From a virus, in IMG/VR virus record IMGVR_UViG_3300027901_000001: a stretch of 64,000 nucleotides of DNA. One strand, written 5' to 3'. The position numbers and the translations under genes are program-made. The notes under the pieces were generated by a model that was not told where the DNA came from, made no database searches, and saw only the letters and a program-made list of their open reading frames with translations. Below, piece by piece: positions 49,458-64,000 of this stretch; position 1 is the first letter of the stretch; each line of letters begins with the position of its first letter.

Positions 49458-49491
49458 CCAGCTATCTTATACGATAGCCAGCGTTGGTCAA
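49458..49491 (-). promoter_or_regulatory. Sigma70-like promoter P8 (leaderless candidate)
   Basis: TTGACC-16-TAAGAT-6 nt-ATG; GCTATC/GATAGC inverted repeat; -35 overlaps the upstream TGA. Confidence 0.6.
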
Positions 49492-50138
49492 GAGGTGGCC
49501 GCGTCCACCAATTTCCAGACCACCCCGATCATCTGGAGCAACGGCATCGCCATCAGCTTCTTCTGGTTCTCGGGCTTCAGCGCATCGTACACCTGAACCA
49601 CGTGGCTCGCAGTCCACAGGTCCACCATCTTGCCCTGAATCTTGCGCGCCGTCTTTTCCTTCACGATCTGGCGCATCTGGTCAATGACAGGCTTTTTCGC
49701 CCTACCCTCGTCCAGCTCTTCGGCCGCCCCGGTGAACAGCACGTCCAAGTCGACATTATCAGATTCTTGAGTGCCTCCTCCGGCCATAACGGAATACCGA
49801 TTACCCCGTCGGGAAATATACACCCCGATTCCTTTTCCAACGCCTCGGGAAACATCTCGCCTGTCTTGCAAATCCGATGGCCAAGCAACAGCAGGAGCCA
49901 AACCGTTTGCCTTCAGCACTCGATTTACCACCTGTACCACCTTCTTAAAGCTATCAAATTCGCGCATTTCATACTTACCAACTGTACGCCCCAAAAATGT
50001 CTGTTTCGGCTCACCGCCCCCAAAACCTGCCTTGCCGAAAGCCTTGTTCAATTTGGCTGTTTCAGCGGACTCTCCTTTCTCCTCCAACCCTCTGGCCTCG
50101 GAGCCCACCGCTTCCTGTAATGCGTTTGCAAATCCCAT
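49488..50138 (-). CDS. Leader-bearing two-domain putative head-internal protein
   Basis: MGFANALQEAVGSEARGLEE; linker DLDVLFTGAAEELDEG; VDLWTA..VYDAL..ENQ module. Confidence 0.72.
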   Translation of the reverse strand: MGFANALQEAVGSEARGLEEKGESAETAKLNKAFGKAGFGGGEPKQTFLGRTVGKYEMREFDSFKKVVQVVNRVLKANGLAPAVAWPSDLQDRRDVSRGVGKGIGVYISRRGNRYSVMAGGGTQESDNVDLDVLFTGAAEELDEGRAKKPVIDQMRQIVKEKTARKIQGKMVDLWTASHVVQVYDALKPENQKKLMAMPLLQMIGVVWKLVDAATS

Positions 50139-50153
50139 CCGTCGCTCCTTATC

Positions 50154-50792
50154 TCAAGGCACTTCCGATGCCGCCTCGCTGAACAGAGCGTTCAAATCGA
50201 CATCCGACGAATCGCTCTCATGTCGCCGGGAACCCGCGAAAAATCTGGTAACGCTTCCCTCCAAGGCAGCCTTCAATTGGGTCGCCTGAGAACGATTGAG
50301 AACACCGAGTGTAACCAGCTTCTTCACGTCCCACTTCTTCCACGCATTTTCGATATCGCTGGCCTTGTCCAGCATATCGTGGGCCTGATCCCGCAAATTG
50401 CGGACAGCAGAATCAATCAGAGAGGCAAAATATGCCGTTGATCCTTTGCCCCGTCCTGCCTCCTCCAAGCTACGGTTTCCCTCCCGTTCCCCGTCAGAGT
50501 CTTCACGTTTTCCGCGAGCCTTTCCGCTAAATGGCGGAGCATCGATCGGCATAACAATCGAACCCGGATTTTCGCGGGCTAACTGCGCGGCAGCGCTGGA
50601 GGTTTTTGCATAAAGGTAGTCGATTCGGTCACGAAGTTTGACCTCGACTTTGAAACGATACCCCTTCTCCTTCATCTTTTCGGCCTCGCGCTTGAACTCG
50701 GCCGCTGTCGAAGGAGTCTTCCCTTTCCCGGCTTCCTCCAGTCCCCCGGCCTCGAAGCCCACCGCTTCTGCCAGTGCGTTTGCCAGTCCCAT
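50154..50792 (-). CDS. Leader-bearing two-domain putative head-internal protein
   Basis: MGLANALAEAVGFEAGGLEEA; linker SLEEA; DVDLNALFSEA. Confidence 0.72.
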   Translation of the reverse strand: MGLANALAEAVGFEAGGLEEAGKGKTPSTAAEFKREAEKMKEKGYRFKVEVKLRDRIDYLYAKTSSAAAQLARENPGSIVMPIDAPPFSGKARGKREDSDGEREGNRSLEEAGRGKGSTAYFASLIDSAVRNLRDQAHDMLDKASDIENAWKKWDVKKLVTLGVLNRSQATQLKAALEGSVTRFFAGSRRHESDSSDVDLNALFSEAASEVP

Positions 50793-54900: not shown

Positions 54901-55474
54901 AATCGGAGATGGCGATGATGTCGGCCGGGAGCGAGATGGACTCTTCCAGCTCAGCCTCAAACAGATCGTTGAGGTCCTCCGACTCGAAATAGACGGGCTT
55001 GTGCTGCAACCCCTTCCTCTTGAACCGAGGATCGTGCTCGATGTTGAGCGGCGCAACGGCATGGGGCTCGTCCCTGTCGCTCCACAAAACCTTCGGCCAC
55101 ATCTTGCCGCCCCCCATCTTCACGAAGCCTACTACCTTCCCGTTGATCGGACCTCCGGCCTGCATCCCGATGTTCCGCAGAAACTTCCCGGTGTACCGAA
55201 CAATATCCCCTTTCTTGAACTCCTTACCGGACCGGCTGCCTTCCTCCAGCGCCCCCGCGAGCTGCCCGGCCAAGCCTTCCTTCTGGTACTTTTTCTTCAG
55301 CTCGGGCTCCTTGTCGTTCGTGGTGCTACCGGTCGACTTGTAGTGCGGCTTCGCACCCTTTTTATACATGTCCCAGGCCAGAGCAAAAGCCTTCTCGGTT
55401 GGCATGTGCCTCTTCATGGCCTTCACGGTCCCGGACCAGCCGGGCGGCGCTTTTTCGGTCAACGGTATGGTCAT
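51932..55474 (-). CDS. About 1180-aa multidomain (polyvalent-like) protein with repeated acidic L-x-E linkers (start MTIPLTE)
   Basis: ChaB-like N-terminus (KAFALAWDMYKKG), SH3-like, two wHTH-like modules, hydrophobic segment, coiled coil. Confidence 0.8.
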   Translation of the reverse strand: MTIPLTEKAPPGWSGTVKAMKRHMPTEKAFALAWDMYKKGAKPHYKSTGSTTNDKEPELKKKYQKEGLAGQLAGALEEGSRSGKEFKKGDIVRYTGKFLRNIGMQAGGPINGKVVGFVKMGGGKMWPKVLWSDRDEPHAVAPLNIEHDPRFKRKGLQHKPVYFESEDLNDLFEAELEESISLPADIIAISDFVSSKEGNVSESDLMRRFQMTRTWAKKVLKVAKVAFRGAGIPRDEMKRARANPGRYFREKVMPVLEKLYAAKLKPRKKEEDLMGLDNLFEEAIEEELLTEKGKHYYDGKSYHADTAFLNSIGDAMPGMKLKHMGFGEFSLEGNGKSIEFDRMRGKKFKGQSGRSHQVYDNKEGKLVKELIKNMEKKGRSELVREEVELEEGRQTGDDAPVEPTIKDFSIAPITRVVKKKKQWTEGDLKHAIYMVVRDQYYKKFKPTFGRGADEDHFRHVAQQFIHKLRRDGKLTHIGYADRSGKVVKHGYGDFVLAVEAAELDEAEKGKLPTEAELVAFMKEKPGRTISVLDLGYAFGLSPQVVTGFFKKLVKKGTLELVQAAPGRKRVSRTASYKLAEGIELAELFWERAEEAPPQISPARYAKNKMLVRAPSATGYKTRAARLADALKGKWTNRERGYIMSKTKAEKLKKLYTDGWDADFYTGKLEPPKKTEGIELIEARWSDALELCQTVTKGLPQLKKKHFFCRFGPQYITPQVIIEYSDVPKGSKTGEIVNCPKQVKFKVAPFKKDGDADGDVKVTVHYSNQKDIGFKPMKGSVDAVGKHIVKFLKQHDSKGMKLAASMANDLHLALMEGPIEEDWFDLSVLSCTDADLEAVLEELEGLDEGVLSKAGKAAVVAALLLGLGEAALARDVDISNYQGRARTVLDLSQRKSTGKKIGDLLKRYGVTEGELSERAPATAAVGELRSDNQELRRELERSVDQTRKFVRSVYHLEEVAEELAHAAQETERIRRTAGVERAMQRSPLGNAARSFEAETKKLYGPFAEGRNAMTRLAKMARISTRRAGKRKGPSVPTREITATNLVREVLQVTARMNSVIRESAELGSVAIREGEKLLNQKSVITGDKLTDRLSAYVQVYLDFRDQVSVGLFKMIASVTRRMNEVTRRLMKMQEGVEHGLHIVVLPWASDPDFEQMWEDEDIAIIGDGVYSQGKGWLEAVA

Positions 55475-55980
55475 TGTTTCACCTGTTCGACGGCTTCCAC
55501 GATGGCTACCGTGATCACCGCGCCAAAAATCAAACCCGCCCCCAGACCGATCTGGCCAGAGTGCTTCTCCCACCAGGACCGGACGGCTTCCTTCTTCCAG
55601 TGTTTGATCTCCCCGTCCGCCGCCTCCAGATGCCGATCGTAGATTTCGCGCTCACGCCCCCACGTCTTTAGATCGATGACGTAGAGCTGGCGCAGCTCGT
55701 TGTAGGCCACCACGTACTTCCCGGCCAAGACCGCCTTCTCGACCGACATGCAGACGCCGGGATTCTTGACCAGCTCCGGCTCCTCCTCCCCCTCCTTTTC
55801 AAGGAGGTAGCCCGCACACGGAACAGTCCAGTCAGCCGCCGGGGGAATGGGCTCAACGTTCGGTCGCTCCGGCAGATCGGCGGCCACCAACGGCGAGGGA
55901 AGCGTCCGCGTCGGCTGCGCCGCCTTCGTCGAGGCACAACCCTGAAAAACCAACAAAAAAATGACGAGGGCAAACCGCAA
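55471..55980 (-). CDS. Lipoprotein with C-terminal TM helix (u-spanin-like architecture)
   Basis: GGAGG RBS then TTG; MRFALVIFLLVFQG-C; C-terminal IGLGAGLIFGAVITVAIV. Confidence 0.6.
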   Translation of the reverse strand: MRFALVIFLLVFQGCASTKAAQPTRTLPSPLVAADLPERPNVEPIPPAADWTVPCAGYLLEKEGEEEPELVKNPGVCMSVEKAVLAGKYVVAYNELRQLYVIDLKTWGREREIYDRHLEAADGEIKHWKKEAVRSWWEKHSGQIGLGAGLIFGAVITVAIVEAVEQVKQ

Positions 55981-56002
55981 GGCCCACCTCCAGAAAGGCA
56001 GG

Positions 56003-56049
56003 CCCGCCAGGGGCAGAAGAAGAAGGCGTAGAATCAGACCCCTGGCGGG
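56003..56049. other. Intergenic inverted repeat (11-bp stem, 25-nt loop)
   Basis: CCCGCCAGGGG at 56003-56013 and CCCCTGGCGGG at 56039-56049. Confidence 0.75.
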
Positions 56050-56062
56050 TTGAACCTTACGG

Positions 56063-56323
56063 TTACAGCTCGTTGGCCTCGTCAAGGATGTTGGTGTCGT
56101 TCGCGTCGACCGCGATGGACATGGTGATCTTGCCCTCCTGCTCCAACAGGTTCAGGCGCTTGAAGGCCGGATCACCCTTGGGCACATCGCCCTCCATCAG
56201 GTCTGCCATCGATACGCCACCGACAAAGGTGTCGGCCGCACCACCGTTAGGGTCCAGAGTGCGGTTGATCGGGAAACCGATAGGCAGCGGTGTCGCGAGC
56301 TGGTTCTGAACAGTGAGAATCAT
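56063..56323 (-). CDS. Small putative virion protein
   Basis: 86 aa; GGAGG RBS. Confidence 0.65.
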   Translation of the reverse strand: MILTVQNQLATPLPIGFPINRTLDPNGGAADTFVGGVSMADLMEGDVPKGDPAFKRLNLLEQEGKITMSIAVDANDTNILDEANEL

Positions 56324-56412: not shown

Positions 56413-56781
56413 TCACTTCTCCGCGAGCTTTTTCCCGTAGTTGGCCAGAACGTCCTTCACCGTACCAACCACGGAGGCGTACCCGATCATCGCGCCGATG
56501 CCCGCGCCTACATAGAAAATTACCGACCCCATCATCCCCTCGGTCGTCAGGGCCTCCGTTACCGGCATTCCGGGAATCAGCCCGATGAGCGCGCCCATCA
56601 CCAGCGAGTGGTTCTTGCAGGTAACCCGATATACGCCCTTCCAGCCCTTGAAACCCTCCTTGGGCCATTTGTCTTTCGGTCCCAGGATGAGCTTCTTACC
56701 AGTCTCGTGAACTGAACCAATTACGAGCAAGGCCACCCAAAAAGCCGGGTGAGTAAAATACGCAACTAGACCATCGAGCAT
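56413..56781 (-). CDS. Holin-like multi-TM membrane protein (start MLDGLV)
   Basis: Three hydrophobic segments, basic C-terminus, near the lipoprotein gene. Confidence 0.5.
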   Translation of the reverse strand: MLDGLVAYFTHPAFWVALLVIGSVHETGKKLILGPKDKWPKEGFKGWKGVYRVTCKNHSLVMGALIGLIPGMPVTEALTTEGMMGSVIFYVGAGIGAMIGYASVVGTVKDVLANYGKKLAEK

Positions 56782-56794
56782 GGCTTCACTCCTT

Positions 56795-57050: not shown

Positions 57051-59087
57051 TCAAGTTATGCACCCGAAGTAACGACTCACCACTCTCGGACAAGGGGGCG
57101 CAGCACCCACTTCTTCCCCCTTATCCTGGGAATAAAAGTAGTCCGACACCCTAGCAGCGTAATCGATAATCCTGTTTTTGTGCCTCTCCAGAGCCCGAAC
57201 CTGCTCCCGAGTATAGGGCTTGTACTGATCGTGGGACCAATCGGCCGCCATATCCTGGCGGCGCGTGCGGATTTGGAGTTCCTTCACCTCACCGTCCTTG
57301 TCCACGATGTCCAGGTGGATGCTCCGATACTTCACCGCGCCCTGGGGATTACGCACCTTGTCATCAATGTTCTTGATCCTTATACCGTATCGCGCCCCCT
57401 TCCCTTTGATACTCTCAATAATATCATACACTTCTCCGATGGAACCGGCGATGATCCTGGTTCCGGTCACATCTCCCAGGGCACTCGCTGCCTTGTATTT
57501 GACGTTCTTTGCATCTGGCGGGGCGATCTTACCCAACATGCTATCGAGGTCCTTCAGCCGACCCGTTACCTTGTACCGGGGACCCGCCAGTCTTCCCAGG
57601 TCCCTCATAAATCCCTGCTGCCGCTTGGCGTGCTTGGCCCTCATCTCCTTCGCAGCCCGGATATGGTCACCAACGCCCAACGGCGCAATCAATCCCTGCT
57701 GCACATACCGCGCCATCCTCCGAATGGTACTAGCCAGCTCCTTCCTCTTCTTTGCCTGGGCCTCAGCATCTTCCACAACATCTTGAGCAAAGGTTCCCTT
57801 CACCTTCCGCCATTTACTCGGATCGGCGATTTTAACATGCACCCCCGTCTTGCGTTTACGCCGGGTGCCAATATCGTACTTGATTTCCTGCAAAATCCTG
57901 TCCAGCGGCGACAGCTCCCGTGACGCTCGAATACCCTTGGCCTCCGGCCATCTGGCCGCCAGCTTGCCCACGGTCACCTGGAGCCGAGCGGCCACATCCG
58001 AATCCAGGCGCTGCCCCAACAATTGCCCCGCGAAGGCCCGAGAAAAGCCCTCCTGCCCCTTTCCATTCCCCCAGGTCTCCCTGTCCCCCTTACCGAACTC
58101 CTGAAGCCACAGGCGTTCTGCGAGCGCCCTGAGCACGTTTTCGATGTTGGCCGAACCGGACCGCTGGGCATCGAAAATGAACAGGTCCGCCGTCGGGTCA
58201 TACTGAACAAAAGCAGTGCCTTTTACCTTGGCCGGATTCAGCTCCACCAGGCCGCCCGCCGCCGTCAACAGCCCCACACCGGTGAGCACCTTCGAGGCCC
58301 CCTCCAGCGCTCGCGTTACGTCCCGGACCTCGGAGCTGGTGTATCCCCACGTGTTCACGACCTCAAATCCAGCAGCCTTGAAAAATGGGTCTGCTTTACC
58401 CAAACCCTTAGCTGCCACCTTCCGAGCATCCCGAAGACCCCCGGCCAGCGCCCGCAACGCGGCCGACGCCTTCCTCGCCCCGGTGGGAGAGGTCCAAACA
58501 TTATGGGCAAGCCGCTTCAAAGTGGACCGGAGCTTACTCACCTCCGGCCGCTCACCCTCCAGGGCATCGGCGACGGGCTCTGCAAGCGCAGCCATCTGTT
58601 TGAGCTTCCAGGAAGCAGCCCCGGTAACCGACACCGCCACGGCCGTCTGCTCGATCTCCTTGGCGATAGCCTTGAGATAGGAGTCAGTCAGCGGGTCACT
58701 GCTGATCTTCGGAACGGCCTCTGTCAGATGCTCTTTCACCGTCACCGATCGTACCACCACCTGCGGGCCGGTCGGAGCATTTGTCGCCCTGGGCGGATCG
58801 TACCTCTTGAGCACCTTCACCGGCCACGCCCACAGCTCCCGGTCCTTTGGCCACCACTGCTGGCGCTGCTCATCGCTGATACGGTGCTCGCCCCGGCGAC
58901 GCTCAAACTGCTTAACGGTGAGCTTTTCCTGCTTGCCCAGCCGGACTGTACCGTACGCCTTCCGGCTACTGAGCAGCACGAACTCCTTGCCCGCGACATC
59001 AAAAGGCTTACTTTTGACGATGAGCTTCTTTTCGCCGTCGCGCACCATCTCCGCCATCGCGGTCGGCGAAAGGATGAGCCCCTCCAC
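57051..59087 (-). CDS. Multidomain protein: ASCH-like N-terminus, central domain, C-terminal RelA/SpoT (small alarmone synthetase-type) nucleotidyltransferase
   Basis: GRLKDLDSMLGK, GDVTGTRI, KYRSIH, ELQIRT, WSHDQYK. Confidence 0.88.
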   Translation of the reverse strand: MEGLILSPTAMAEMVRDGEKKLIVKSKPFDVAGKEFVLLSSRKAYGTVRLGKQEKLTVKQFERRRGEHRISDEQRQQWWPKDRELWAWPVKVLKRYDPPRATNAPTGPQVVVRSVTVKEHLTEAVPKISSDPLTDSYLKAIAKEIEQTAVAVSVTGAASWKLKQMAALAEPVADALEGERPEVSKLRSTLKRLAHNVWTSPTGARKASAALRALAGGLRDARKVAAKGLGKADPFFKAAGFEVVNTWGYTSSEVRDVTRALEGASKVLTGVGLLTAAGGLVELNPAKVKGTAFVQYDPTADLFIFDAQRSGSANIENVLRALAERLWLQEFGKGDRETWGNGKGQEGFSRAFAGQLLGQRLDSDVAARLQVTVGKLAARWPEAKGIRASRELSPLDRILQEIKYDIGTRRKRKTGVHVKIADPSKWRKVKGTFAQDVVEDAEAQAKKRKELASTIRRMARYVQQGLIAPLGVGDHIRAAKEMRAKHAKRQQGFMRDLGRLAGPRYKVTGRLKDLDSMLGKIAPPDAKNVKYKAASALGDVTGTRIIAGSIGEVYDIIESIKGKGARYGIRIKNIDDKVRNPQGAVKYRSIHLDIVDKDGEVKELQIRTRRQDMAADWSHDQYKPYTREQVRALERHKNRIIDYAARVSDYFYSQDKGEEVGAAPPCPRVVSRYFGCIT

Positions 59088-59090
59088 GCC

Positions 59091-59417
59091 TCACCTCAGA
59101 TTGGCGGCAAGAAAGGCAGCGATATCCCGGCGCGCCCCTTTCGGATCAGTCTCCCCCTTTTTTTCGATGGACTCGATCACCTTCTTCTGCGCATCCGCTG
59201 TGGCCCGCACCTTGGCCTTCTCGATCTCTCCTTCCAGATGCACACGCTCGATCTTGTCCCGCGCCCGCTCTGTAAAGGTCGGCGGCTTCAGCGGTCCCTC
59301 CGTAGGCTCCGGACCCCCTTTCGGCCCCAGCAGCTTCCACAGGATGGTAATGGCGAACCCGACACCGAGCGCGAACGCCCACCACCAGCGCCGAATAAAC
59401 CGCTTGACCTTTTTCAT
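59091..59417 (-). CDS. N-terminally anchored membrane protein with helical domain (i-spanin-like, tentative)
   Basis: KKVKRFIRR then WWWAFALGVGFAITILW. Confidence 0.55.
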   Translation of the reverse strand: MKKVKRFIRRWWWAFALGVGFAITILWKLLGPKGGPEPTEGPLKPPTFTERARDKIERVHLEGEIEKAKVRATADAQKKVIESIEKKGETDPKGARRDIAAFLAANLR

Positions 59418-61474: not shown

Positions 61475-62317
61475 CTACAGCCCAAGCGGTCCAGCTATGG
61501 CACCGCCGATATCCTCCAGGATGCCGCCGTCCTCAGAATCCCCAGAAACCGCCAATGGATTCACAACTTCGCCCGCCAGCGTCATATCCGCACGATTGTG
61601 AAAGGCCACTTTACCCTCACTCTGCACCGTCTCAGCAAATTCCAGGGATATCTCCACGATACGCGGCCGACCGCTGGGGAACCACGCCTCGTAGGTGACA
61701 TCGCAGGTGGTCATCACACACACGATGTCGTGCTCGTCGATCTTGTGCCCCAGGTTCGTGCCGGGCAGCACCAGGATGCACTTCGGAGGCTCGAACACCC
61801 GCAGATCGTCCTGGATGTAGTACGGGTAGGTGAAATATCGCAGCCAATGAATCGCCGCCTCGATAGGCACATTCCTCATCGGATCCGCTTCCGGACCGCC
61901 CAGGCCAACAAAGCTGGCTGCCGATTCGACCGCGCTCACCACGGCTCCAATAGCCCCACCGATGCCCCCGGCCTTCTCCCTCGGGGGAGGCTCATGGTCG
62001 CGAGTAAAAACGGCCGTAAAGCTCAGCCGCCGCTCGCCGCCGTGGGTCCACTGATAGATGGGATGCGAGCCACCGGGAATGTTGCGGGGATTCCATTCCG
62101 ACGGGCGGCTATCGGTCAAGGACTCCGGCCAGTACTGAAACGCTATTCCGGCATCCTTGGCAGGCTCGGCCCCGACCGACAAACCGCTACCCTGTCCTAC
62201 CCACGGAGGCACCTCATCCTCAGCCAGATCAATGGCTTTCAGATAAGCCTGAGCCAGCTTCGGGTGATGCGTGCTCCCCGTAAGCTGAGTAATTATTCCT
62301 GTAGGCAGCGCGGGCAT
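61475..62317 (-). CDS. Contractile-tail baseplate / tube-initiator protein (CIS tube-like)
   Basis: FQYWPESLTD..IPGGSHPIYQWTHGGERRLSF..PPKCIL..CVMTTCDVTYE..GRPRIVEISLEFAE. Confidence 0.8.
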   Translation of the reverse strand: MPALPTGIITQLTGSTHHPKLAQAYLKAIDLAEDEVPPWVGQGSGLSVGAEPAKDAGIAFQYWPESLTDSRPSEWNPRNIPGGSHPIYQWTHGGERRLSFTAVFTRDHEPPPREKAGGIGGAIGAVVSAVESAASFVGLGGPEADPMRNVPIEAAIHWLRYFTYPYYIQDDLRVFEPPKCILVLPGTNLGHKIDEHDIVCVMTTCDVTYEAWFPSGRPRIVEISLEFAETVQSEGKVAFHNRADMTLAGEVVNPLAVSGDSEDGGILEDIGGAIAGPLGL

Positions 62318-62565: not shown

Positions 62566-64000
62566 TTAATCCAACGGCCCATTGAAAGCGGTAAGCGTTT
62601 GAATCCCGAAAACAACAAACTGAAAATAAATTACTTCTGTAGTCAAATCCTTATTACCGGTACTCCAATGATAACACGAGATGCGAAAGGTGTCGGTATC
62701 GTAAGCGTATCCTGAAAAATAATATCCCGGACTATCAGACGTAATTATGATGATCATGTCATCTTCGTCTGTAAAACTCTGTCTCAAATTGATATCTAGA
62801 TCGGGAGATTGTTTGACGGGATCCCCGTTAATATTGAAACCCTCTATCAAAGAAGGAGAAGCCCCGCTGTAACACTTTCCCCATGCCTTTGGAGCGTTTT
62901 TCGCTTTCAAAACGTTCCTCGGCACCGTGATATTTTTAGCAGGATTCTGGTCCGCACTAATTCCTCGGAAATCAACACCTGAACTCAACACTATCGCTTG
63001 CCCGTCAGCTCCTCCAGTTGGATTATCAAAAAGGCCACCTCCTTTGTCGCCTCTACCATATACGCCGTATCCCTGATCGGAACCCGGACCATCAAGACCA
63101 ACAACCCCGACGTTTCTATAGGAAGGCGATTCGGGACCACGTTCACCAGCCTGACCAAATACCCCAATACCACCCTCCCCCGCTCCATTTTCGGCATCAC
63201 CACCAAAGGCTTTTAATGCGGTATGCCCATCACCGTCGCTTAGTGCATCTCCCCCATAAATAATAACAGCGGGATCAAGGTAATACCCTGAATCCGTATT
63301 TTCACCATAAAATACTCCGGCAAGGCCATCGGTTCCTGCCACACACGCTACACCAGCACCTTGCGCCGAATCCAATTTTAGTGCCCCTAGTGCCTCTTCG
63401 GACGCGCCCTTGCCCCAAAACACACCGCCAACATCCTTAACCGTGGGTATATCACCACCATACTCACCCTTACCGAATACCCCCGCAGAGGCTTCGCCGC
63501 TGCCTTCTGCCATCCCATACATTCCAAACGCGGCATATCCTTCATCTGGATCAAGCGCTGCGGACAGCACTCCCATAACATGCTCACCTACCCCCGTTCC
63601 GTCTGCCACAGCATATATACCCCCTAACTTGCCCTCCGCCGCTATAGCAGGAGCGGTAAGGGACGGGGTTTCGCTGTAAATACCAGGGGCATCGGCAGCC
63701 ACGGCATGAATAGCAACATTGTCTTCCGATTCTACGAATATCCCTCTCCCCGATCCGGTCGCTACAATAGTTAGGGCATCAGTATCCGCTGGAGGCGTGA
63801 TGTCCATCGCCCCTTTGAAAAATGTATTAGCTTCAATGGTCCAATCAAACAGATCCACGTCATTGACAGGATCAGCCGTGATCTTTGCAGATATGGCACT
63901 GCCATCCGCCGGGCTGGTGTTAATTAATCTGATGGTCGAATCGGCCCATGTCGCCTCATCGTCCGGTAAGATAGCAGGGAAAAGCGCCAGAGCACTTCCT
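62566..64000 (-). CDS. Tail-fibre-like Gly-rich repeat protein, partial (frame open to the window edge)
   Basis: Repeated GxYG/GVFG motifs; C-terminal KAWG..SLIEGFNI; lower GC. Confidence 0.65.
   Translation of the reverse strand, partial: GSALALFPAILPDDEATWADSTIRLINTSPADGSAISAKITADPVNDVDLFDWTIEANTFFKGAMDITPPADTDALTIVATGSGRGIFVESEDNVAIHAVAADAPGIYSETPSLTAPAIAAEGKLGGIYAVADGTGVGEHVMGVLSAALDPDEGYAAFGMYGMAEGSGEASAGVFGKGEYGGDIPTVKDVGGVFWGKGASEEALGALKLDSAQGAGVACVAGTDGLAGVFYGENTDSGYYLDPAVIIYGGDALSDGDGHTALKAFGGDAENGAGEGGIGVFGQAGERGPESPSYRNVGVVGLDGPGSDQGYGVYGRGDKGGGLFDNPTGGADGQAIVLSSGVDFRGISADQNPAKNITVPRNVLKAKNAPKAWGKCYSGASPSLIEGFNINGDPVKQSPDLDINLRQSFTDEDDMIIIITSDSPGYYFSGYAYDTDTFRISCYHWSTGNKDLTTEVIYFQFVVFGIQTLTAFNGPLD

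Follow-up and report, generated by a model that had tools for sequence, protein, structure and literature searches.

A phage protein that joins a catalytically dead zincin-like carrier to a RelP/RelQ-like alarmone synthetase, a candidate effector for delivery with the DNA

Introduction

Why does a phage attach an alarmone synthetase to the end of a multidomain protein, and in which cell would such an enzyme act? The question is raised by a gene at positions 57051-59087, on the minus strand, of a 64,000-nucleotide stretch of the IMG/VR virus record IMGVR_UViG_3300027901_000001 (the window, by which we mean this whole stretch); the window belongs to a 191.6-kb virus record with direct terminal repeats. 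A preliminary description of the gene had recognized a RelA/SpoT synthetase domain fused to other modules and had interpreted the product as a packaged enzyme that is released by cleavage and reprogrammes host metabolism at injection. The presence of alarmone-synthetase domains on virion proteins of phages was predicted in 2017; toxin domains of the MuF-Apk2 type have since been characterized as enzymes, their injection being only presumed. The first minutes of an infection are decided by injected effectors of the phage, of which, to our knowledge, only a few (T4 Alt and IPI) have been studied.

The computational analysis reported here bears out the earlier observation as a whole, with the open reading frame (ORF) lying exactly at these positions and the synthetase domain being intact, and it supports the earlier interpretation in part. 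Domains of at least two disparate activities are united in this one phage polypeptide (ASCH-like, zincin-like, and RelA/SpoT). Our joint reading, to which we give a probability of about 0.45, is that the protein is a modular effector that would be packaged in a T4-type head and cleaved there, and whose RelP/RelQ-like synthetase would be injected together with the DNA.

Results

An intact synthetase domain at the C-terminus

The gene is one uninterrupted ORF that opens with GTG, 3 nt past the stop codon of the upstream gene, and a GAGG Shine-Dalgarno sequence lies 6 nt before the GTG. The G+C content at third codon positions of the N-terminal 117 codons is 0.80 in the frame of the gene; the rest of the gene and its neighbours have the same value, and the first 117 codons are therefore coding in this frame. 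The full-length AlphaFold model consists of three ordered parts connected by low-confidence linkers (residues 80-129 and 379-444), and, with a predicted template modelling score (pTM) of 0.37, displays no confident packing between the domains. A complex prediction for the carrier (described below) and the synthetase domain scored 0.00, which gives no verdict and is evidence neither way.

Residues 509-623 match the Pfam family RelA_SpoT (PF04607), whose cut-off is 27 bits, with a score of 49.6 bits (E = 5.7e-13); in the six-frame search of the genome, the score reached 53.6 bits. All five synthetase motifs, which the preliminary description had listed as a complete set, were found (syn1, residues 509-520; syn2, 539-544; syn3, 587-591; syn4, 603-608; syn5, 617-623), and they align residue for residue with the solved RelP and RelA structures, including the catalytic Asp of syn2 and the catalytic Glu of syn4. 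Foldseek comparison of the synthetase model returned RelP, RelQ, CapRel, and long Rel enzymes (E from 4e-6 to 1e-4, probability 1.00), the best matches being RelP/RelQ at 4e-6. The family profile of the synthetase module matched RelP at 2.7e-16, RelQ at 7e-10, long RSH enzymes at about 1e-9, CapRel at 3e-6, and FaRel2 at 0.02; Tas1 was not matched by this profile. In the PHROGs database, the sole match of the whole protein was phrog_4773 (function unknown), to the synthetase part.

The chemistry of the enzyme had been left open in the preliminary description between ppGpp, ppApp, and tRNA. In addition to the profile, the residues at syn2, syn3, and syn4 (G-T-R, S-x-H, and I-R, respectively) belong to the RSH guanosine type, and the adenosine-type Apk signature at these motifs (RYT, GxN, and YH; PMC12226406) was not found at syn2-4 of the synthetase. 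The same paper reports that swapping the syn signatures failed to convert Apk2, so these residues alone do not set the specificity; for this reason we state only a leaning, namely toward a (p)ppGpp-type small alarmone synthetase (SAS) resembling RelP and RelQ. The enzyme would most probably move pyrophosphate from ATP onto GDP or GTP. The alternatives are synthesis of (p)ppApp with depletion of ATP, as with Tas1, Apk2, and FaRel, and pyrophosphorylation of the tRNA CCA end, as with CapRel, FaRel2, and PhRel2, to which an ASCH-like RNA-binding module might contribute. Among the delivered or toxic RelA/SpoT domains with a characterized activity, most make (p)ppApp or pyrophosphorylate tRNA (PMC11782079, PMC12226406, and PMC7229694), and CapRel is both matched by the profile and listed by Foldseek. 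We nevertheless consider such a chemistry unlikely, because RelP/RelQ score 10 orders of magnitude better than CapRel, Tas1 is unmatched, the syn2-4 residues are of the guanosine type, and the ASCH-like module is missing from all relatives; moreover, toxic, exported synthetases specific for (p)ppGpp exist (PMC12691689).

A conserved tail containing two invariant cysteines closes all synthetase modules, the fused as well as the split ones, as observed at the ends of the related proteins P0003-P0007 and of the synthetase genes of loci L006 and L007. We know of no counterpart of this tail in RelP or RelQ. Its spacing is P-C-P, about eight residues, G-C, and then two or three residues to the stop codon.

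A carrier module with a dead zincin fold

The synthetase is preceded by a conserved module, here called the carrier, which consists of a four-helix bundle and a zincin-like half. When refolded alone with 42 family sequences, the carrier gave a predicted local distance difference test (pLDDT) value of 91.6 and a pTM of 0.82. The bundle resembles vinculin/talin-type bundles with a VIA-align Z score of 10.3, a generic match. For the other half, the top Foldseek matches were all zincins, comprising anthrax lethal factor (LF), collagenases, and Pro-Pro endopeptidases (PPEP), with probabilities of at most 0.99 and E values of only 0.016 or weaker. The VIA-align Z scores of this half were 9.5 to anthrax LF, 8.1 to BACCAC_01431, a putative zinc-binding metallo-peptidase (PDB 4l7a, 151 residues aligned), and 7.7 to PPEP-3. 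The carrier family profile reaches HExxH-bearing proteins at E values from 1e-6 to 1e-4, and hhalign (95.7% and 94.3%) places the H-E-L-G-H of these relatives on R-A-L-A-E, residues 320-324. The tentative suggestion that residues 318-327 form a degenerate zincin helix was thus right, profile comparison and fold being in agreement. His/Glu/His was present at the HExxH columns in 0 of 42 carrier family members, and because these residues are gone across the family, the carrier domain cannot be a metalloprotease.

The carrier matched no Pfam and no PHROG family, and its distant HExxH-bearing relatives match phrog_17197 ('peptidase') weakly. The search of the ESM-Atlas with the carrier gave weak leads to DdrB, LPD1, minor-capsid, and LF-like clusters (best score 0.80), and the fold search of BFVD gave phage peptidases together with minor-capsid and polyvalent proteins, at E values of 1e-3 or worse. 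One distant, active relative of the carrier, P0058 (1252 aa), combines, in the manner of polyvalent proteins, a eukaryotic-type topoisomerase I (topoisomerase-IB) core with two HExxH zincin motifs.

Two other identities were tried and rejected. An endolysin reading of the carrier, prompted by the spanin- and holin-like neighbours of the gene, is ruled out by the family-wide absence of the catalytic residues. A MuF reading of the carrier was discarded as well: Phage_Mu_F of Pfam matched neither the protein nor, at E values up to 1, the genome.

An effector slot that is fused, split, swapped, or empty

A word-indexed search retrieved six relatives of 545-572 aa that keep the carrier and the synthetase and in which the ASCH-like part is missing, and a seventh, P0008 (699 aa), that has Zeta_toxin/AAA_33 in place of the synthetase. 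When the carrier profile was run against 1.84 billion representatives, 65 proteins were found, 41 of them at E < 1e-30. Nearly all of these measure 241-268 aa and stand alone, apart from the RelA fusions P0004, P0007, and P0016 (truncated), the Zeta fusion P0008, and P0025, which has another extension. About 45 clusters make up this unannotated carrier family, whose members are mostly stand-alone proteins of about 250 aa. In loci L002 and L003, the carrier gene stops just past the last helix and is directly followed by a homologue of the membrane-protein gene found downstream here, and in loci L005, L006, and L007 the synthetase has a gene of its own, read in the -1 frame and overlapping the stop codon of the carrier. 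The C-terminal effector slot is swapped among the relatives, the occupant being a fused synthetase, a split synthetase, a Zeta kinase, or none. Neither tblastn of the protein nor megablast of 14 kb found a match in 50,697 phage records, and IMG/VR scans for family relatives with A1, P0012, and P0008 returned none, save one unrelated Zeta-domain match (L014).

A single conserved, non-catalytic module joined to alternative toxin domains also recalls fused sensor-toxins of the CapRel type. The protein would then serve inter-phage competition, the dead zincin restraining the synthetase or the Zeta kinase until a trigger binds; the match of the RelA part to the PADLOC defence-candidate model PDC-S33 (4.3e-11) and the absence of a separate antitoxin would suit such a device. 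We regard it as very unlikely, since the carrier is mostly stand-alone and occupies a fixed site behind baseplate and fibre genes with the same upstream gene, so that it looks like a core phage gene and not like part of a defence island. The toxin is, besides, a separate gene in three loci, and a restraining contact finds no confident inter-domain packing to match it in the full-length model.

An N-terminal module particular to this phage

The preliminary description had placed an ASCH-like domain ahead of the central domain, where the N-terminal 117 residues lie. In the language-model features of the ESM-Atlas, 23 of the 30 clusters nearest to these residues were ASCH (score 0.95), and the ASCH identity is a lead taken from these features. 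No profile supports it: Pfam gave nothing on residues 1-117 even at E 10, ASCH (PF04266) included, and a six-frame ASCH search of the whole genome was empty. No sequence homologues of these 117 residues were found, and for want of homologues residues 1-129 were modelled at pLDDT below 50, the fold there being unreliable. The module is absent from P0003-P0008 and from loci L002-L007. In one relative, the upstream membrane-protein gene and the gene for the carrier are parted by a 132-aa ORF (L005:612-1007); as this insert sits where the ASCH-like module sits here, the junction before the carrier is a recurrent insertion point.

Candidate cleavage sites between the modules

The modules had been described as separated by the protease sites HLTE/A and ILQE/I (the slash marks the candidate cut). 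Both are present, at residues 120-124 and 398-402, respectively, and both fall in AlphaFold segments with pLDDT below 50 between folded domains. The T4 protease gp21 cuts after L/I-x-E, the capsid-targeting leaders of T4 measure 10-19 aa, and Alt loses 7 aa (PMC9026906). A hydrophobic-x-E site stands before every effector module of the family (9 fused and 2 split forms) in a linker that is otherwise poorly conserved. The split synthetases of L006 and L007 open with leaders of 8-14 aa ending in L-x-E-A, and in the closest carriers a stub of 3-6 aa comes first, with [ILMV]-[TA]-E-A at its end. Behind the linker follows an adaptor motif with invariant G407, G415, and W426, which is common to the synthetase and the Zeta-toxin versions. 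The genome also contains T4-type head genes, matched by Portal_T4 (184 bits), Peptidase_S77 (the gp21-family prohead protease; 65.6 bits against a cut-off of 27), and Gp23 (200 bits). Packaging and cleavage are made plausible by this portal, protease, and gp23 in conjunction with the L/I-x-E sites before the effectors.

Some features of the head genes and of putative cargo genes were observed in passing. The Peptidase_S77 match lies in an open frame of 559 aa (genome G000:C1:179743-181422 (+)), far longer than a plain prohead protease, and this length points to a protease with a scaffold-like extension at its C-terminus. The gp23-type capsid protein (genome G000:C1:181475-183007 (+)) has L-Q-E about 18 residues before a conserved R-R-x-x-P-N-L-I-A core, plausibly a T4-type propeptide cleavage site. 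Downstream of the synthetase gene, two adjacent genes of the window, 49488-50138 and 50154-50792 (both on the minus strand), begin with nearly the same 20-aa leader, which ends in G-L-E-E, and differ thereafter. They are the only two ORFs in the 192-kb genome that carry this leader, which looks like a T4-style capsid-targeting leader.

Genomic surroundings and the search for an antidote

The coordinates of the gene, of its modules, and of the neighbouring membrane-protein genes are collected in Table 1.

Table 1. Modules of the synthetase-bearing protein and the membrane-protein genes around it (positions in the window; residue numbers refer to the 678-aa product)
Feature	Position	Strand	Remarks
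Whole gene: ASCH-like module, carrier module, linker, alarmone synthetase	57051..59087	(-)	678 aa; stop included in coordinates
ASCH-like N-terminal module, residues 1-117	58737..59087	(-)	ESM-Atlas features; in this phage only among the relatives found
First linker, residues 118-125; candidate protease site L-T-E/A (residues 121-124)	58713..58736	(-)	
Four-helix bundle, residues 126-231, first half of the conserved carrier	58395..58712	(-)	AlphaFold model m7a33e0eb6ab4, pLDDT 91.6
Catalytically dead zincin-like metallopeptidase fold, residues 232-388	57924..58394	(-)	R-A-L-A-E (residues 320-324) at the HExxH position
Basic linker/adaptor, residues 389-470; candidate protease site L-Q-E/I (residues 399-402)	57678..57923	(-)	
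Small alarmone synthetase (RelA_SpoT), residues 471-660, syn1-syn5 intact	57108..57677	(-)	Pfam match spans 57219-57563
C-terminal tail, residues 661-678, two invariant Cys (P-C-P ... G-C)	57054..57107	(-)	Conserved
Upstream 108-aa gene; N-terminal transmembrane helix and coiled coil (i-spanin-like)	59091..59417	(-)	Translationally coupled, conserved upstream partner of the carrier
Downstream multi-pass membrane protein, about 123 aa from the Met used by homologues (holin-like)	56413..56784	(-)	Directly follows the stand-alone carrier in L002 and L003
Protein with lipobox Cys and C-terminal transmembrane helix (unimolecular-spanin-like)	55471-56085	(-)	

The preliminary description had placed the gene in the virion region, which is only loosely true: it does lie behind baseplate and tail-fibre genes, but at a distance of about 47 kb from the head genes and among membrane-protein genes. 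Upstream on the same strand are a baseplate spike gene (Phage_base_V, 34 bits) and weak hub and P2-I-like matches. A tube-like gene (61475-62317) has an 837-aa fibre-like gene just upstream; the match of the tube-like gene to CIS_tube stays below the cut-off both here (21.9 bits) and in L007 (23.2 bits). The fibre-like gene (62566-64000 (-) in the window) runs on to genome position 31019 (L013:17020-19533) and contains a repeated G-V-[FY]-G-x-G motif. Locus L007 keeps the order of tube-like gene, three ORFs, 108-aa membrane protein, carrier, and synthetase, and further downstream it has homologues of the lipoprotein-like gene and of a 1213-aa modular protein, again in the same order. A search of the genome with Pfam Phage_lysozyme, the one endolysin family covered, gave no T4-type lysozyme. 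As to signals of expression, the T4 late-promoter word TATAAATA has a single copy in the window, at a site remote from the gene, and the sigma-70 and terminator scans stayed at chance level.

As had been noted before, no hydrolase antitoxin is adjacent to the gene, and the search of the whole genome yielded neither the alarmone hydrolase HD_4 (SAH/Aph1-type) nor MazG. No antitoxin gene, either for a small binding protein or for an SAH hydrolase, stands next to the synthetase gene, the neighbours being membrane proteins, and no small ORF lies directly behind it; in L007, a 77-codon ORF follows the synthetase.

Action in the producing cell as an alternative to packaging

The surroundings of the gene offer another explanation, in which the protein is never packaged. 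The synthetase, expressed late or in the middle period, would act in the producing cell on host physiology, superinfection exclusion, or lysis timing, and the dead zincin would be a regulatory or localizing partner, possibly at the membrane together with the flanking membrane proteins. Several observations point in this direction, and some of them also weigh against our packaging reading. The gene is flanked by small membrane-protein genes, three in all, which resemble genes for lysis or exclusion, and the 108-aa transmembrane/coiled-coil gene among them is both conserved and translationally coupled. The head genes are remote, the 47 kb that separate them from the effector gene extending across the genome ends. 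The full-length protein opens with the folded-looking ASCH-like module and has no N-terminal leader, unlike the putative cargo neighbours. Most family members, finally, are stand-alone carriers without an effector.

Further points count against the packaging reading itself. The N-terminal hydrophobic-x-E-A motif is confined to the closest clade. L/I-x-E is a short motif with eight copies in the protein, of which six are inside folded domains. The protein is without a tblastn match in the phage records searched and its carrier without a PHROG family, and acceptor specificity is not reliably readable from sequence, as the failed conversion of Apk2 by its signatures indicates (PMC12226406).

What speaks against action in the producing cell is the nature of the slot, which swaps the unrelated toxin-type enzymes RelA and Zeta, as is typical of delivered polymorphic and polyvalent effectors (PMC5512222), and the retention of L/I-x-E at each effector start. 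A toxin-type enzyme in the producing cell is also harder to explain in the absence of an antidote. We presume on balance that this explanation is possible but somewhat unlikely.

Discussion

In the packaging reading, which we prefer, the effector would comprise the carrier (a four-helix bundle and a zincin-like domain without metal and catalytic residues), a short basic adaptor, and an active RelP/RelQ-like synthetase, and the ASCH-like module at the N-terminus would have been picked up additionally by this phage. The protein would be made late and taken into the T4-type prohead, where the prohead protease would cut at the exposed L/I-x-E linkers and free the synthetase. The freed enzyme would then enter the next host with the DNA, where it would raise the alarmone at once and switch off the growth functions of the host; confinement to the capsid would replace the missing antidote gene. 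We infer the sequence of packaging, cleavage, and injection at a little under even odds.

A bolder proposal, which we consider distinctly unlikely, goes beyond this. The dead zincin may be an undescribed docking carrier of T4-like phages, which would load swappable toxin-type enzymes (alarmone synthetase or Zeta kinase) into the head, from which the prohead protease would free them. The injected (p)ppGpp synthetase would force an instant stringent-type shut-off of the host, and the lack of an alarmone hydrolase would be adapted to this shut-off.

The locus adds a carrier family without a Pfam or PHROG entry, and a guanosine-type, RelP-like enzyme instead of the usual Tas1/Apk type. In nature the effector slot is met fused, split, swapped, and empty, and this series provides clean constructs for studying the choice and release of cargo in T4-type heads. 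The significance would be smaller if the protein acts only inside the producing cell.

Several known systems share parts of this design. In the polyvalent proteins of phages, zincin-like domains form a hub, and the phage type is the only one with RelA/SpoT (Iyer, Burroughs, Anand, de Souza, and Aravind 2017; PMC5512222). The present protein resembles them in uniting unrelated domains in one phage polypeptide, in its zincin-like hub and RelA/SpoT effector, and in the predicted delivery with the DNA, and the distant HExxH relatives of its carrier include the 1252-aa topoisomerase-IB protein with two zincin motifs. It differs from them in being a small three-module protein of a T4-like lytic phage and in the loss of HExxH across the carrier family of about 45 clusters. 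Because of this loss, the self-processing proposed for polyvalent proteins is impossible here, and the T4-type prohead protease would have to make the cut.

MuF-Apk2 (PMC12226406; PMC5576092; PMC10083569) likewise combines a conserved phage N-terminal carrier with a variable C-terminal toxin, sometimes a pyrophosphokinase of the RelA/SpoT type, and injection from the head is presumed. MuF-Apk2 belongs to temperate phages with IapK and Aph1 immunity, whereas the phage examined here is T4-like and lytic, encodes no MuF and no HD_4-type hydrolase, and has guanosine-type signatures.

T4 Alt and IPI-III are head cargo: a capsid-targeting sequence directs their loading, and gp21 trims them (PMC9026906). 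The likeness to them lies in the T4-type portal, protease, and capsid genes, in the L/I-x-E at module boundaries, and in the leaders of the split synthetases ending in L-x-E-A; as with Alt, the putative cargo is an enzyme that would act on the host upon entry. Unlike Alt, an ADP-ribosyltransferase, this putative cargo is an alarmone synthetase, and it has no N-terminal leader.

As an enzyme, the synthetase is closest to RelP and RelQ of Firmicutes (SAS2 and SAS1; PDB 6fgk, 6ewz, and 5ded), which are its best matches in sequence and fold and with which it shares the five syn motifs and a long C-terminal helix. It differs from them in its fusion to a carrier, in its extra Cys-bearing tail, and in an identity of only 17-22% over the fold. 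With the toxic small alarmone synthetases (toxSAS) FaRel, FaRel2, PhRel, PhRel2, and CapRel, some of them phage-encoded (PMC7229694 and PMC11782079), it has in common the use of a single-domain RelA/SpoT enzyme as a growth-arresting weapon, as far as the packaging reading holds. In contrast to toxSAS, it has no adjacent antitoxin gene and no hydrolase, and its similarity to CapRel and FaRel2 is far weaker than that to RelP. The design is known in outline from phage effectors of the polyvalent and MuF-Apk2 types; it differs from these in having neither antidote nor MuF, in a zincin that is dead family-wide, in an unannotated and mostly stand-alone carrier, and in a RelP-like enzyme of the guanosine type.

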